A stretch of DNA of 5,921 nucleotides from a virus (Duplodnaviria; Heunggongvirae; Uroviricota; Caudoviricetes). A program made the translations under genes and the position numbers. The DNA is taken from the IMG/VR virus record IMGVR_UViG_2778261088_000007; one strand, written 5' to 3'. Under the pieces are notes generated by a model. It worked only from the letters and a program-made list of their open reading frames with translations, did no database searches and was not told the origin of the DNA. Below, piece after piece: positions 1 through 5,921 of the stretch (the first letter of the stretch is position 1; each line of letters starts with the position of its first letter).

Positions 1-148
1 AATCGATTTTGGGTCTCACCAAAATTACGGGGTTGCATACGCATTCGTTTATTTTCGAACGTGTACATACAAATATGCACAAAAATAATCAAAATTATTT
101 TCTGCGATGCATTATGATATGAACACCAATTTCGTATAGAGTCTCACT

Positions 149-739
149 ATGTCTCGAATTTTTGCTTACTGTCGGATATCAACGCTGGATCAGACCACCG
201 AAAATCAACGCCGGGAAATCGAAAGTGCAGGTTTTAAAATCAAACCTCAGCAAATAATCGAAGAACACATTAGCGGCTCAGCAGCAACCAGTGAGCGTCC
301 TAGTTTTAACCGGTTGCTTGCTCGCCTGAAATGTGGTGATCAATTGATTGTGACAAAACTGGATCGCCTTGGTTGTAATGCAATGGATATCAGGAAAACA
401 GTGGAACAACTGACCGAAACAGGTATCAGAGTGCATTGCTTAGCATTGGGGGGCATTGACTTGACCAGTCCAACAGGAAAAATGATGATGCAAGTAATTT
501 CAGCAGTTGCTGAATTTGAACGAGACCTTTTACTTGAACGCACTCATTCCGGGATAGTAAGAGCCCGCGGCGCAGGGAAACGTTTTGGTCGACCACCTGT
601 GTTAAATGAAGAACAGAAACAGGTGGTATTCGAACGAATTAAGTCAGGTGTAAGTATAAGTGCCATTGCCCGGGAATTCAAAACCTCGCGGCAAACCATT
701 TTAAGAGCCAAAGCAAAACTTCAGACACCTGACATATAA
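149..739 (+). CDS. pinR: Serine recombinase / site-specific DNA invertase, PinR/PinQ-like, 196 aa
   Basis: ATG at 149 and TAA at 737-739 give a clean 591-nt ORF. The N-terminus ([14 protein letters not shown]) carries the conserved serine-recombinase catalytic motif, with the Ser in RIST as the presumptive nucleophile, and the C-terminus has a helix-turn-helix-like segment ([20 protein letters not shown]). From memory the whole protein matches the 196-aa PinR/PinQ invertases of E. coli cryptic prophages; pinR versus pinQ cannot be distinguished here. A weak purine-rich stretch (agag, 137-140) is the only Shine-Dalgarno candidate. Visibly more AT-rich than the adjacent fiber gene. Confidence 0.9.
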
Positions 740-761
740 AAAATAATCTCGGTGTGAGATG
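738..761 (-). terminator. Weak candidate intrinsic terminator after tfa, in the convergent pin/tfa intergenic region
   Basis: A 5-bp stem atctc/gagat with loop ggtgt (plus 746-760) is followed on the minus strand by TATTTTTTA (plus 737-745), which overlaps the pin stop codon. The stem is short and not GC-rich, so predicted stability is low. Confidence 0.3.
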
Positions 762-836
762 CTTTACGTCTTCCAAGCCCCCTTCCTTGCCGTAAATGGA
801 AAGATACATCTAATTAAAGAATTTATATGTTTTACC

Positions 837-1412
837 CTACGGCAGTGCTGGCCATTCAATATCCTGTGCAGTTGACGTATCAACACGGTTCAGCAATACC
901 CGATACTTTTTCCATGCTTCCAGCAACGAGATTTCTTCCTCCGTTGCAATTTCCAGATCTGCAGCATCCTGAAGCGGCGCAATATGCTCACTGGCTACCT
1001 GCATCAGGTTGTTTTTTGTTTCTTCCGCCTCCCGGATCCGGAACAGTTTTTCTGCTTCCGTATCCTTCACCCAGGCTGTGCCGTTCCACTTCTGAAACTC
1101 CCCTTCCGGCGATAACCAGGTAACATTTTTCGGTAACGGACCGAGTTCAGAAATAAATAACGCGTCGCCGGAAGCCACGTCATAAACCGTTTTACCCCGA
1201 TGATCTTCAACGAGATGCCACGATGACTCATCACTGTTGAAAACAGCCACGAAGCCAGCCGGAATATCTGGCGGTGCAATATCGGTACTGTTTGCTGGCA
1301 GACCTGTATGAGGCGGAATATATGCATCACCTTCACCAATAAATTCATTAGTTCCGGCCAGCAGATTATAAATTGTTATGGTCCGTGGTTGTTCACTCAT
1401 TCTGAATGCCAT
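837..1412 (-). CDS. tfaR: Tail fiber assembly protein / chaperone (lambda Tfa-like), 191 aa
   Basis: Minus-strand ORF with ATG at 1410-1412 (plus-strand cat) and TAG at 837-839. The N-terminus [54 protein letters not shown] is recognisable as the lambda Tfa / Rac TfaR family. Its start overlaps the stf stop in a TAATG arrangement, and a GAGG-like Shine-Dalgarno sits inside the last stf codons (plus about 1421-1426), consistent with translational coupling. Confidence 0.9.
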
Positions 1413-4400
1413 TATGCAAGCCTCACAATATAGTTAAATGCGATGTTTTTGACGGTGTTTTCCGCGTTACCAGCAGCGTTAACGGTGATGGTGTGTCCAT
1501 GTGAGCCAATCGCAACGGAGTGCGTATGAGCACCAATACCGACAGTATGTGCGTGTGCACCTGCGCTTGCAGCAGTACCCGATACAGAGTGCGTATGAGC
1601 GCCTGCAGAAGAAGTGTTAACACTGTATTTAGAATAATCAGGTGATCCACTTCCCGGAGCACCACTGGAACCACCTGAAACAAATGTCATCGAATGGGTA
1701 TGTGCACCGGCTGAAGCAGCCGTACCGCTAACACTATGGGTATGTGCACCAGTGTTATTCGTGGATTTAGTGCCGTAATCAAACGATGATGTGGTTTTCG
1801 TCCCCAAATCCGTACTGGATGCGCTGGCGCTGTGGGTGTGCGATTTAATGCCGTCCTGTTCCTGAGACAATACGGCACGACCACTGGCGGGCTTGCCCTT
1901 AATCGTCCAGCCACGCATATCAGGAATAACGCCTGACGGATAAGCCACTGCAAGTTTCGGGTATGCAGATTTGTCAAAAGTCTGCCCCTGCATCAGGGCA
2001 TAGCCAGACGGAACGGTATCTGATGGCCACGGGATTGGTGCGCCGACTGGGTAGCTTTCTGGTGGAAGATTTTTCGAGGTATAAACTTCTGCCCAGTCAT
2101 CCTCAAAACCATAACCGTCTCTTGAAGAACGGTAGAACAGACCACCATTTCTGTAATGCGCCTTCATCTGCAGGGTCCGGCAACTTCCGACTCCGGTATA
2201 GAAGTTAACCAGAATATAGCTGTCGCCAGAGCGAGTGACATTGTAAGCGCCTGATTCGGCATTCCATGGAACGCCACCATCCGCATCGGCATATGTATCC
2301 GTTGCCCTTCTGGCAAAAGCAGCCACATGCGCGGCGGTTAAAGTAATATCTTTGGAACCATCAAACTCAACACCAGAAACCCGTCTTGGCGTTTGCAGCT
2401 TTGTTGCTGTTAATGCATTACCGTTCAGACTTGCGGACAGTTTGGTTCCAATAACCAGTTCGCCGGTTGCGTTATCAATAGCAAACGGTCTTAATGTATT
2501 CCAGCCACCATAAACATCACCTTGATTGGTAAGCAGCAGGTAAGTTTTAGCGCCATCATTACGCCATAATGCACCATACTCTCCACCTATCATTCGAATC
2601 TGATTACCACCACGCGCTACAATTTCGTCTGTGGCAAAAAGTTTTTTGCACGACAAGTTATCGTTAACGATTAACGAATGAGACTCATAAAAACCACGCC
2701 CACTCTTAAAATCAAGGATAACGTCCGCCGCGATACATTCAGTCGCTGGATTTGTTGCCCCAAACTTATAGGTCGTATCATTAACAACGAGATCAGCACC
2801 AGGTGCGGATATTGACAGGCCATCTTCGATAAACGCAAAAACAGGGAAAGCAGCGCCATCAACATAGAACACAGAGCGCAAATCATCGCCCTTATTACTC
2901 ATCATTATTGAGTGGATGGCTCGTTCATTGTTTTGATATTGCCAGAACATTCCATAAGCATAACGCCCCCTGTCAGTCCAGCCACCAGGCATAACAAATC
3001 CGTTAAACTCGCAGTTATTCATCGGATCGCCTGCGGTTCGCGTTGCCGTGGTGATAATGACCCTTGATGCCAGTTCGCTTACTGAGCCAGCAGAACGCAT
3101 AACAACAACAGGGTAATATTTTCCAGATGTTGCACCTGCAGGAGCGTTAACCCGCACATAACGCATACCACGCTTATCAGCAAAGTCTGTTTTACTGACC
3201 GCGTTAATGTTGTTCAGGAAGCGTCCCTTATCGGGTATATCAGTGCCGTTCTGGTCTTTCTGCAGACGTTTCTCTGCATTGTCATAGGCTGATTTTACTG
3301 CCTTTGGCGTTGCCGCCAGCGTTTCAGACGTACTGTTGGTCGCACTGCTGAGCTGTACTATCCCCTTTTTCGTCGTGCTCGCATCCTCAAGCGCCACGGC
3401 GGATGCAATATCCTCTGCCCGTTTTGCTGCTGTCTCGGCGCGCGTTGCCGCGGATTCCGCCGTACTTTTGCTCTGAGCTGCCGCCGTCGCACTGCCAGCT
3501 GCCTCTGTCGCCTTCGTGGATGCCGTCGTGGCGCTGCCCTTCGCTGCTGACGCCTGTCTGGTCGCCTCATCTTTTGAAGCAGACGCCGATGATGCCGATG
3601 ACGCCGCCGAACTGGCTGACGATGCGGCAGCCGTTTTTGAGGATTCTGCGCTGGTTTCCGACGCTTTCGCGTTCGTTTCGGATGTCTTCGCTGCGGAAGC
3701 TGACCTCGCTGCTACCGTGGCCTGTTCAGTGGCTTCGCCAGCCTTCGTTGTGGCTGTTGAAGCGGATGATGCGGCGCTTTCTGCCGACTTTCCGGCAGCG
3801 GTGGCACTGGCTGAGGCCTGCCCGGCATTTGTTGACGCGGCGCTGGCAGATGAGGCAGCCGCTGTTTTTGAGTCTGCTGCTGCGGAGGCACTCTGTCCCG
3901 CTGCCGTCTCAGAAGACTTTGCGTTCGTCTCGGACGTTTTTGCCGCCTTCGCGGAAGTTCCTGCCGCTGTTGCCGAGGAGGCTGCACGACTGGCGCTCGA
4001 GGCTGCGCTCGTTTCTGATGATTTTGCCGCCTCTTTTGAAGCCGACGCATCCCTGGCTGAGGTGGCAGCTTCTGACGCTTTCGTGGTCGCGGTGGATGCA
4101 GAAGTGGCGGCTGATTGTTGTGACGCTGCCGCATTCGTTTCTGACGTTTTCGCCGCACCGGCACTGGTAGCCGCCGCGCTTTTTGAGGACTCTGCAGCGG
4201 CAGCACTTTTTGAGGCTTCAGTGGCCTTTGTTGATGCCGTTCCTGCGCTGGAAGACGCTGACTGAGCCGACGACGCGGCCTGTCCGGCTGACGTGCTGGC
4301 TGCACGTGCTGAATCTGCAGCATCAGTCGCACGGGTTGCCGCCTCACTGGCAGATGTGCCGGCATCACTGGCTGACTTCTTTGCGGCTGCCGTGTTCTGT

Positions 4401-4762
4401 GCCACCACGGACGCGTTACGCGCCACCTCTTCCACCATCAGTTCAAAACGACGCAGTGCCTCCGGACGGGCATCATCCTCCGTCATGGCACCGAGAAAAT
4501 CATTCAGCGTACCGGGTTGAGAATCTTCATACACGGTGATGGTCCCGGCATGTGACGGCGGGAATCCCTCCACCAACAGAATAACGCTGTACTGACCGTA
4601 CTCAACGTCCATGCTGTAACGCCCGGCTTCATCCGGATTTTCTGAGGCCAGCGTGTTCACCACCACAGTGGTACTGTTACGTTTTGCTTTCAGCTGGATT
4701 GTGCAGTTCTGTACCGGTTTTCCTGTGCCGTCTTTCAGTACACCTGAAATCTTTACTGCCAT
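1412..4762 (-). CDS. stfR: Side tail fiber protein (lambda Stf-like, Rac StfR-like), about 1116 aa from ATG 4760-4762; the ORF track begins at an in-frame GTG at 4766-4768
   Basis: Single uninterrupted 3.35-kb minus-strand ORF ending TAA at 1412-1414. From the ATG the N-terminus reads [26 protein letters not shown], matching the lambda Stf N-terminus from memory; the track's MNM start uses the GTG two codons upstream, so the ATG is the more likely start. A GGGGTGA Shine-Dalgarno lies about 5 nt upstream of the ATG. The C-terminus [22 protein letters not shown] is the conserved Stf/gp37-type fiber tip. Size and domain order resemble StfR of prophage Rac. Confidence 0.9.
1490..1843 (-). repeat. 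His-x-His repeat region at the stf C-terminal tip (seven HxH motifs), putative metal-binding needle domain
   Basis: Residues about 976-1093 contain SHTHS, AHTHS (three times), AHAHT, AHTHS and SHGHT. The 20-aa block [20 protein letters not shown] / [20 protein letters not shown] is duplicated, with matching nucleotide repeats (gagtgcgtatgagc at about 1519 and 1587; gggtatgtgcacc at about 1697 and 1737). Confidence 0.6.
3419..4411 (-). repeat. Ala/Ser/Thr-rich low-complexity shaft region of stf with three imperfect tandem units, each containing AAKTSETNA
   Basis: Protein residues about 120-450 are almost entirely A/S/T/K/E. The nucleotide motif gcattcgtttctgacgttttcgccgc and close variants recur at plus 4131-4156, 3921-3947 and 3669-3696 (spacing about 210 and 252 bp), each encoding AAKTSETNA on the minus strand. 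This compositional bias also creates the long spurious ORFs in other frames across the region. Confidence 0.6.
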
Positions 4763-4772
4763 ATTCACCCCA

Positions 4773-4801
4773 CAAAAAAGCCCGCCTGAACCGGCGGGCT
4801 G
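4773..4801 (-). terminator. Rho-independent terminator on the minus strand, immediately upstream of the stf ribosome-binding site
   Basis: Minus-strand sequence gcccgcc-ggttca-ggcgggc forms a 7-bp GC-rich stem with a 6-nt loop (plus 4780-4799), followed directly by TTTTTT (plus A-run 4774-4779) and then GTGGGGTGAATATG (SD plus stf start). There is no T-run on the plus-strand side, so it is oriented with the tail-fiber transcription direction. Confidence 0.55.
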
Positions 4802-4824: not shown

Positions 4825-5241
4825 ATCCGTGACCTGAGCCGTCTGCAGGTTCAGTGAGTCCCCCGGCATCAGGTGCGGCACTTTTGCGCCTCCCAGACGG
4901 ACCGGTGCTGCGGCGTAATACGCGGCAATTTCACCAATCCAGCCGGTCAGCTTGTCCCGCTGCTCCTTACTGTTCGCGCCCAGAATAAAATCCATCGCTG
5001 ACTGCGTATCCAGCTCACTCTCAATGGTGGCGGCATACATCGCCTTCACAATGGCGCTCTGCAGCTGCGTGTTCTGCAGCGTGTCGAGCATCTTCATCTG
5101 CTCCATCACGCTGTAAAACACATTTGCACCGCGGGTCTGCCCGTCCTCCACGGGTTCAAAAACGTGAATGAACGAGGCGCGCCCGCCGGGTAACTCACGG
5201 GGTATCCATGTCCATTTCTGCGGCATCCAGCCAGGATATCC
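4825..5241 (-). pseudogene. Internal fragment of a lambda gpB-like portal protein gene, lacking its N-terminal and C-terminal portions
   Basis: The 153-aa minus-strand ORF (4765-5226) reads MPQKWTWIPRELPGGRASFIHVFEPVEDGQTRGANVFYSVMEQMKMLDTLQNTQLQSAIVKAMYAATIESELDTQSAMDFILGANS...GWIGEIAAYYAAAPVRLGGAKVPHLMPGDSLNLQTAQ, which from memory is collinear with the middle of lambda portal gpB; its initiating Met is an internal Met of the portal. Portal-frame similarity starts at GYPGWM (plus about 5224-5241) and is lost after QTAQ-VTD (plus about 4825-4836). The ORF then runs 20-odd codons through the terminator hairpin and stops at TGA overlapping the stf start region. Confidence 0.7.
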
Positions 5242-5921
5242 GTACCGATTTCGGTAAGGTAAACCCCGTTTTTGTTTCGCTTACGAGGCATGCTGGCCAC
5301 CGGCTTACCGTAGACGGATGCCCCTTTAATGGGGATCACCCGGAACAGCCCATGCTTTTTCGAGCGTTCATACACAATGGTCGGGTCAATCCCGCCAGTA
5401 TCCCAGCAGATACGGGATATCGACATTTCTGCACCATTCCGGCGGGTATAGGTTTTATTGATGGCCTCATCCACACGCAGCAGCGTCTGTTCATCGTCGT
5501 GGCGGCCCATAATAATCTGCCGATCAATCAGCCAGCTTTCCTCACCCGGCCCCCATCCCCATACGCGCATTTCGTAGCGGTCCAGCTGGGAGTCGATACC
5601 GGCGGTCAGGTAAGCCACACGGTCAGGAACGGGCGCTGAATAATGCTCTTTCCGCTCTGCCATCACTTCAGCATCCGGACGTTCACCGATTTTCGCTTCC
5701 CACGTCTCACCGAGCGTGGTGTTCACGAAGGTTTTACGTTTTCCCGTATCCCCTTTCGTCTTCATCCAGTCTTTGACAATCTGCACCCAGGTGGTGAACG
5801 GACTGTACGCCGTCCAGATGTGAAAGGTCACACTGTCAGGCGGTTCAATCTCTTCACCGGATGACGAAAACCAGAGAATGCCATCACGGGTCCAGATCCC
5901 GGTCTTTTCGCAGATATAACG
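5238..5921 (-). pseudogene. Internal fragment of a lambda gpA-like terminase large subunit gene, 3'-truncated and extending beyond the window edge
   Basis: The minus-strand frame is open from the window edge (..RYICEKTGIWTRDGILWFSSSGEEIEPPDS-VTFHIWTAYSPFTTWVQIVKDWMKTKGDTGKRKTFVNTTLGETWEAKIGERPDAEVMAERKEHYSAPVPDRVAYLTAGIDSQLDRYEMRVWGWGPGEESWLIDRQIIMGRHDDEQTLLRVDEAINKTYTRRNGAEMSISRICWDTGGIDPTIVYERSKKHGLFRVIPIKGASVYGKPVASMPRKRNKNGVYLTEIGTD), matching lambda gpA from memory. After LTEIGTD (D codon at plus 5238-5240) the frame runs into portal-derived DNA out of frame and terminates at 5106 after a nonsense tail (ILAGCRRNGHGYPVSYPAG...). The track's 5831 start is only an internal GTG. Confidence 0.7.

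Follow-up and report, generated by a model that had tools for sequence, protein, structure and literature searches.

The 5,921-nucleotide stretch of DNA analysed here (hereafter the window) comes from the IMG/VR virus record IMGVR_UViG_2778261088_000007. It carries, near its left end, the gene pin for a small serine recombinase of the pinQ/pinR type, which lies next to a tail-fibre assembly gene (tfa) and a tail-fibre gene (stf). The gene pin and tfa are convergent and separated by a gap of 97 bp (740-836), and tfa and stf overlap at position 1412, where tfa starts on the final nucleotide of the stf stop codon. The original prediction, made from the sequence of the window, had regarded pin as an invertase of the Gin/Cin/Pin(e14) class with no visible invertible cassette or crossover sites. 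Four possibilities were offered, i.e. that the target lies upstream of position 1, that the enzyme uses unrecognised local sites, that it acts in trans on another prophage, or that it is an orphan. The features discussed below are collected in Table 1.

Table 1. Genes, residues and sequence relics at the pin locus (window coordinates).
Feature	Position	Strand	Evidence and remarks
Relic of res subsite I (ancestral crossover site)	36-61		Aligned to the dyad at -115 of the relatives
Relic of res subsite II, 32-bp length kept	76-107		20/32 to the family consensus, offset -73
TATGAT, aligned to the TATAAT of most relatives between subsites II and III	112-117	+	Alignment A2, columns 91-96
Relic of res subsite III	119-138		15/20 to the consensus, offset -30
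pin, pinQ/pinR-type small serine recombinase, 196 aa	149-739	+	Pfam Resolvase PF00239 (1.1e-35), HTH_7 PF02796 (3.7e-11)
TGT codon, Cys76 at the position of catalytic Arg71 of Tn3/gamma-delta resolvase	374-376	+	LDRLGR changed to LDRLGC
Relic of the right-end 38-bp Tn3-family terminal inverted repeat	748-782		Starts 9 nt after the pin stop codon
TTCCT, possible 5-bp target-site duplication	783-787		Abuts the right-end relic
tfaQ, sole tail-fibre assembly gene	837-1412	-	Caudo_TAP (6.9e-43); tfaQ/tfaR annotation in matching genomes
stf, stfQ/stfR type, 1118 aa, one fixed copy	1412-4768	-	phage_tail_N, Gp34_trimer, Collar and Phage_fiber (Pfam)

Thousands of E. coli genomes match the window, the top match being E. 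coli 1303 (99.8%), in which the genes are annotated as pinQ and tfaQ. In the complete genomes the gene order is truncated ydfJ (the prophage end), ynfT, ydfK, pinQ, tfaQ, stf, lom and J, and the same arrangement is found in the Qin and Rac prophages of strain K-12. The prophage/chromosome junction sits in ydfJ, and the approximately 1.3 kb between pin and the prophage end contain ydfK and ynfT only. The window represents one end of a lambdoid prophage of the Qin/Rac type. The pin product (hereafter PinQ) is 99% identical to PinQ and PinR of K-12, and the whole 839-nt pin module (res relic, gene and downstream spacer) shows 8 differences from K-12 pinQ and pinR. Proteins 98.5-99.5% identical to it are encoded in 11 E. 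coli phage records, including mEp460, 2H10, Tritos and HannyBb. In mEp460, the one record that was opened, pin converges on a single tfa and a single stf, and a ydfK-like gene, int and xis come next.

One tfa and one stf were found throughout the window and the 14-22-kb homologous loci. The convergence of pin on a single fibre gene pair was borne out by the open reading frames, by Pfam and by tblastn, and the predicted absence of a second, oppositely oriented tfa/stf pair held for the window and for the homologous 22-kb genomic locus, where tblastn counted one tfa and one stf. Crossover sites of the Din family of invertases are defined as two sites of about 26 bp with an AAACC-NN-GGTTT core, inverted with respect to each other and flanking an adjacent segment. 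When up to three mismatches were allowed, the Din-type consensus (TCNNAAACCNNGGTTTNNGA) had no match in the window, and the same search recovered both pix sites in the e14 control; a 16-mer of the e14 pix site, again with up to three mismatches, had no match in the window either. The absence of a gix- or hix-like site was, therefore, correctly predicted.

The search for inverted repeats proposed in the original prediction returned no pair above chance. Between 1-900 and 1400-4800 the longest exact inverted repeat was 10 nt, compared with 9-15 nt, and mostly 10-11 nt, in simulated pairs; mismatch-tolerant 26-mers taken from either flank of pin reached 17-18/26 at best, which is the null level. 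The point of stf homologous to the e14 crossover (about 2057-2083) closely precedes the collar domain, and the first residue with homology to e14 StfE is the one that directly follows the pix position. At this point no crossover dyad was detected, nor did the Din consensus match. In addition, the pin-tfa junction (query 600-1000) was colinear and in a single orientation in 2,647 complete E. coli genomes. A published BLAST survey found inversions only in e14 and none in Qin or Rac (PMC12529663), and in the same study PinQ inverted no DNA adjoining itself (Kirigo et al., 2025; PMC12529663). A target upstream of position 1 is refuted by the complete genomes, which hold only ydfK and ynfT before the prophage ends, and the idea of unrecognised local sites, which would have defined a new shufflon-like switch, is left unsupported by the repeat search and by the single orientation of the junction. 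PinQ/PinR is an already known orphan, with no local switch, cassette or crossover sites, and it is this last option that the sequence evidence favours. As there is no hidden shufflon at this locus, tail-fibre variation of the Qin/Rac type does not come from local inversion.

The reason why no cassette is visible may be found in the family to which the recombinase belongs. PinQ reached 102.6 bits with Gin and 80 bits with gamma-delta resolvase; for PinE, the genuine Din member of e14, the scores were 312 and 112 bits, respectively. From these scores, and from the 37% identity between PinQ and PinE, it follows that Gin is roughly as distant from PinQ as a resolvase is from PinE. Among solved structures, Gin gave PinQ its highest score, and the NCBIfam models gave sub-threshold matches only (Mpi, XisF, CcrB) and no useful name. 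Genes whose products are 59-84% identical to PinQ are present on 1,858 plasmid records, chiefly from Klebsiella, Escherichia and Enterobacter, and in diverse proteobacteria; the relatives on chromosomes or contigs (58-78% identical) come from Shewanella, Erwinia, Photorhabdus, Budvicia, Mycoavidus, Sphingobium and others. On plasmids, these genes are found among cargo genes, partition genes and insertion sequence (IS) elements, and no tfa or stf homologue was found beside the sampled relatives. To judge from these comparisons, pin encodes a resolvase homologue of the TnpR lineage and not a Din-family invertase. The premise that it belongs to the Gin/Cin/Pin(e14) class was wrong: the gene belongs to the Tn3-family TnpR/res lineage, for which a cassette was never needed.

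One of the relatives resides in an intact transposon. In Shewanella glacialipiscicola (locus L016, 6824-16251), a 9.4-kb Tn3-family transposon encodes a TnpR 77% identical to PinQ; tnpA is divergent from tnpR across res, and 38-bp repeats of the form GGGG...ACGCTAAG are located at both ends. A Klebsiella plasmid copy has a truncated tnpA at the same position, and tnpA remnants are found in Photorhabdus. The E. coli plasmid pTB-nb2 (locus L004, 5847-6698) contains an 852-bp unit composed of repeat, res, tnpR and repeat, with no tnpA. Its three-subsite res is intact, its tnpR homologue is 83% identical to PinQ, and its terminal repeat, intact and at the same place after the gene, matches the Shewanella repeats at 36 of 38 positions. 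This unit resembles a TIME-like miniature element carrying its own resolvase. From end to end it is colinear with the lambdoid pin module, the 220-bp upstream stretch included, and megablast homology between the window and the pTB-nb2 copy extends over 90-778.

The ends of such an element can be traced around pin. On the right, 23 of the 31 nucleotides at 748-778 agree with the terminal repeat; no other place in the window scores as high, and the maximum in 100 simulated windows was 21. The left-end relic (24/38) lies outside the window, 15-52 nt to the left of position 1 (locus L001, 7949-7986), so that the window cuts the element. Both relics have the location and the orientation to be expected for the two ends. 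The pentamer TTCCT that abuts the right relic also precedes the left one (L001, 7944-7948), and the pair could represent a 5-bp target-site duplication, although this is suggestive only. The tnpA gene is absent from the window.

In the layout that defines a Tn3-family res, TnpR dimers bind three subsites and the strands are exchanged at site I (PMC13367494). In 13 relatives of PinQ, an array of this kind is located at fixed offsets from the ATG: subsite I, a 26-bp dyad (TGTCCGAAA-N8-TTTCGKACA), lies at -115, subsite II, a 32-bp dyad, at -75 and subsite III, a 20-bp site, at -32. The spacers and flanks between the subsites vary. A half-site matrix was built for the family (training median 15.3 bits, threshold 9 bits), and over the 8-20 kb inspected for each relative locus it found no dyad outside the array. 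Positions 36-138 of the window align column for column with the array of the relatives, and only one of the five canonical half-sites is preserved. In the relic of subsite I, 52-61 scores 8.0 bits and the left half less than 6 bits, so that a 10-nt scan gave nothing at or above 9 bits; a 9-nt scan shows one isolated right-type match at 53. In the relic of subsite II both half-sites are mutated (TGCACAAAA ... TTTCTGCGA), each scoring less than 6 bits, and no dyad symmetry was detected in either relic. The sole well-preserved half-site is that of subsite III, TTTCGTATA at 129/130-138, where 129-138 reaches 14.3 bits, the best score in the window. With the same matrix, the window, 22 kb of E. coli 1303 and 14.5 kb of the mEp460 record yielded no second res or site-I dyad. 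The hexamer TATGAT between subsites II and III is probably, as the alignment suggests, the -10 element of the pin promoter; a generic promoter scan made no call there, and the promoter and terminator scan of the window as a whole gave no decisive result.

The helix-turn-helix of PinQ shows only two conservative changes with respect to the relatives in a 15-sequence alignment. Because it is nearly unchanged, the changes in the sites of the window are read as decay and not as co-evolution of protein and site. The possibility that PinQ co-evolved with new half-sites was considered and rejected, since the recognition helix is essentially unchanged and the sites of the window have no dyad symmetry. 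What genuine co-evolution looks like is shown by truly diverged relatives such as those from Sphingobium (L021) and from an Erwinia phage (L005), in which the sites have stayed symmetric and follow another half-site motif. A rarer lambdoid variant (L038) combines a plasmid-type gene encoding Arg76 with better preserved subsites II and III, and therefore plasmid and prophage copies recombine. As a separate observation, Erwinia oleae (L020, 1280-2649) contains two divergent PinQ-like genes, whose products are 72% and 78% identical to PinQ, with a central subsite I common to both and one subsite II each. Subsite III as a separate element was recognised only by eye, and this double-resolvase layout is unusual.

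Decay has also affected the active site. The complete catalytic set, in Tn3 numbering, consists of Y6, R8, S10, D36, R68 and R71, and PinQ does not contain all of it: Y7, R9, S11 and R73 are kept, and Cys76 takes the place of Arg71, as established by ungapped HMMER alignments to Gin and gamma-delta resolvase and by the 15-sequence alignment. Among the best 120 homologues, LDRLGR occurs in 112 and LDRLGC in five, all of which are from the PinQ/PinR clade; the clusters of this clade comprise thousands of sequences. The same Cys is present in K-12 PinQ, in K-12 PinR and in phage mEp460. In Tn3 resolvase, the R71A and R71K substitutions abolish recombination and slow cleavage by about 1,000-fold or more, with DNA binding retained (PMC2794168). 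The PinQ of the window carries, in addition, the change G52S (codon 302-304) in the conserved ERPGF motif, where K-12 PinQ and PinR have Gly. RPGF preceded by E, D or K is found in 112 of the 120 homologues, 107 of these being ERPGF, and ERPSF in four.

On the basis of these data, we consider that, with a probability of roughly two in three, the segment 36-787 together with the left-end relic is a decayed miniature Tn3-family element, and that pin encodes a stranded homologue of TnpR-type resolvases. The ancestral element would have had the layout terminal repeat, res, tnpR, terminal repeat, with tfa on one side and, on the other, the ydfK/attachment end of lambdoid phages of the Qin/Rac type. 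Its cognate target would have been, as in the intact relatives, a three-subsite res directly upstream, and not a pair of inverted sites around a fibre cassette; no cassette would then be visible because none ever existed. In this lineage subsites I and II have lost their half-sites and dyads, the ends are degenerate, tnpA has disappeared and Cys stands in the place of Arg71. The homology, the decay of the sites, the changed residue, the single orientation and the lack of repeats are shown by the data, whereas the functional consequences are inferred. PinQ would be incapable of any recombination in cis. The protein probably retains its fold and the ability to dimerise and to bind DNA, given a helix-turn-helix with hardly any change and a ratio of non-synonymous to synonymous substitution rates (dN/dS) below 1. 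Any role would be exerted in trans or without catalysis, for example by autoregulation at the surviving half-site or by an influence on further recombination systems, e14 being one, and retention of the gene under moderate constraint for such a function is the best explanation of its persistence.

Several points weigh against this interpretation. Each repeat relic is weak when taken alone (23/31 for the right end; 24-25/38), the 5-bp duplication could be due to chance, and an empty insertion site, with the two flanks joined, was not found in 5,426 genomes. The verdict of decay rests on a matrix built from the relatives, and PinQ could have a specificity that this matrix does not recognise. The effect of the Arg-to-Cys change on PinQ is extrapolated from Tn3 resolvase, and may be different in PinQ. 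Between two Cys76 lineages dN/dS is 0.34, i.e. lower than 1 (p = 6e-4), and therefore selection still acts on PinQ, which is no dead pseudogene; it should be noted that the genes encoding Arg76 have an even lower dN/dS (0.13-0.19; p ~0.02-0.04 against the Cys76 pair). Finally, when PinQ was expressed from a plasmid, the inverted share of the e14 P segment was reported to rise from 30% to 88%, and PinQ was called an active recombinase (PMC12529663).

This last result is the basis of the published model, according to which PinQ is a fully active invertase that flips the P segment of e14, or similar cassettes, in trans and acts as an anti-phage switch. Inversion of P yields the chimeric StfE2, which blocks adsorption of phage T2; T2 survivors carry the inverted P segment, and the effect of PinQ is gone upon deletion of stfP, stfE or e14 (PMC12529663). 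Moreover, the half-sites of the PinQ family (TGTCCGAAAC) and those of pix (TCTCCCAAAC) have a T-TCC-AAAC pattern in common. However, inversion in the published Table S4 is 22% in the pinQ deletion strain against 30% in the wild type, but 1.5% in the pinE deletion strain, which still carries pinQ and pinR, and the effect of PinQ is reported from pinE-containing hosts only (PMC12529663). The 88:12 ratio is unlike that of a simple reversible inversion and hints at selection or at an indirect effect. The sequences are no more favourable to the model: PinQ is without the equivalent of catalytic Arg71, the pix half-sites score below 9 bits with the family matrix and mismatch the two most conserved G positions of the consensus, and the P segment with pinE is present at a coverage of at least 80% in only 170 of 5,426 genomes, compared with about 2,650 for the pinQ/R module. 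We regard the published model as unlikely, though not negligible. Direct catalysis of P inversion by PinQ is not established, and the sequence argues against it, whereas an indirect or residual activity of PinQ on the P segment is possible. Action in trans on another prophage, as entertained in the original prediction, thus agrees with the published claim, but the published inversion depends on pinE.

The remaining explanations are far less probable. If the diverged upstream array still served as res, for example for the resolution of phage or prophage dimers, PinQ would be a working resolvase; the length and register of the array are kept and dN/dS is below 1, but subsites I and II have no dyad symmetry in spite of an unchanged recognition helix, the catalytic Arg is missing, and the truly diverged relatives L021 and L005 have kept symmetric sites. 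This would appear very improbable. No more credible is an invertase of the Gin/Cin/Pin class stranded by deletion of an adjacent invertible fibre cassette (Sv'-U'). The gene cin of P1 faces the C segment, and pin adjoins tfa and stf and converges on tfa in the same way; Gin, furthermore, heads the list of solved structures. Against a deleted cassette are the low identity to PinE and a Gin score only one third of that of PinE, the relics of res and of Tn3-type terminal repeats flanking the gene, and the close relatives, which are transposon or plasmid genes and never lie beside tail fibres. No trace of a dyad is left at the place in stf that corresponds to the crossover site, and the phages mEp460, 2H10 and Tritos carry a 99%-identical pin, mEp460 being likewise single-cassette. 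This explanation deserves scarcely any credence, and even less is due to a cryptic local switch, in which PinQ would invert a segment in or near the window via overly degenerate sites. Short imperfect sites are possible in principle, but nothing positive speaks for them: inverted repeats are at chance level even when mismatches are allowed, 2,647 genomes have one orientation, the published survey saw inversions in e14 only (PMC12529663), and no dyad of the family type was found in the window or in its 22-kb surroundings.

The interpretation of pin as a stranded resolvase homologue can be extended, tentatively and with low confidence, to a function. PinQ/PinR would be a domesticated, catalytically crippled resolvase, retained by about half of E. 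coli genomes and by some phages, and acting with no cleavage of DNA. Its role might be that of a regulator that binds DNA or of a partner that biases PinE-type invertases; the latter would reconcile the over-expression effect with the missing catalytic Arg and with the dependence on pinE. A transcriptional role has been given to PinR in a preprint.

Comparison with known systems helps to place the locus. With PinQ and PinR of K-12 (Qin, b1545; Rac, b1374), the window has in common Cys76 and the neighbours ydfK/ynaE, tfa and stf; it differs in G52S and in its internal prophage deletions, which have joined pieces of terminase and portal to stf. With the TnpR-res systems of Tn3 and gamma-delta, PinQ shares the Resolvase and HTH_7 domains, and its relatives share the three upstream subsites with site I farthest from the gene, the divergent tnpA and the 38-bp terminal repeats. 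The subsites of the relatives are 26, 32 and 20 bp long, those of gamma-delta res 28, 34 and 25 bp. The window, in contrast, has degenerate sites and repeats, no tnpA and Cys in the place of Arg71, and its recombinase scores only 80 bits against gamma-delta resolvase. The Din invertases Gin (Mu), Cin (P1), Hin (Salmonella) and PinE (e14) resemble PinQ in superfamily, domain layout and tail-fibre neighbourhood, and also in the name 'pin', which was given by annotation. They are distinguished by the 37% identity, and by the 26-bp inverted sites, the alternative fibre cassette and the orientation polymorphism, all absent here; the e14 control displays the real Din arrangement. A Fis-bound enhancer within the 5' part of the invertase gene is a further feature of Din systems. 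Lastly, the pTB-nb2 unit is like TIMEs and like IS101, which has a functional res, in being short and in having Tn3-type terminal repeats, a res and no tnpA, but it carries tnpR, whereas the described TIMEs have no genes (PMC13367494). The lambdoid copy is unlike TIME-type elements in that it is no longer intact.

PinQ/PinR is present in about half of the sequenced E. coli and was recently promoted as the first 'recombinase-activated' anti-phage switch. A stranded resolvase with decayed sites, the missing catalytic Arg and the pinE-dependent inversion together limit that model, and the transposon ancestry and the catalytic change merit a control experiment. More generally, they are a warning that a small serine recombinase beside tail-fibre genes is not automatically an invertase. 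A literature search linking pinR with tnpR or Tn3 returned plasmid gene lists only, and no paper linking PinQ/PinR to Tn3-family TnpR. The transposon ancestry and the catalytic change thus appear to be unreported; they represent a modest new detail and not a new kind of system.

Some further observations were made at these loci. In the window, a lambda-type portal fragment (about 4826-5236) and a fragment of terminase gpA (5237-5921), both recognised by Pfam, are fused to the start of stf. Because of these fusions the prophage contains two joints left by internal deletions, at about 4825/4826 and 5236/5237. The deletion of E. coli 1303 is different from that of the window, and K-12 Qin has yet another (a nohA-stfQ fusion). 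The middle of stf (3400-4400) contains degenerate repeats rich in Ala and Ser, spaced in multiples of 21 nt (7 codons), and its C-terminus (1490-1760) has several His-rich repeats of the GAHTHS type with a weak match to Pfam Phage_fiber.

Contigs 97-99% identical to E. coli pinQ-tfa are found under assemblies of Alistipes, Draconibacterium, Caldithrix and Nocardioides (L008, L011, L012 and L032) and almost certainly reflect contamination by E. coli DNA; the same artefact probably underlies the published 'PinQ in trematodes'. The cargo of the Shewanella transposon consists of a GGDEF response regulator and a hybrid histidine kinase. An IS66-family insertion splits tfa beside the plasmid-type pin encoding Arg76 in one E. 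coli genome (L038, 5689-8714).

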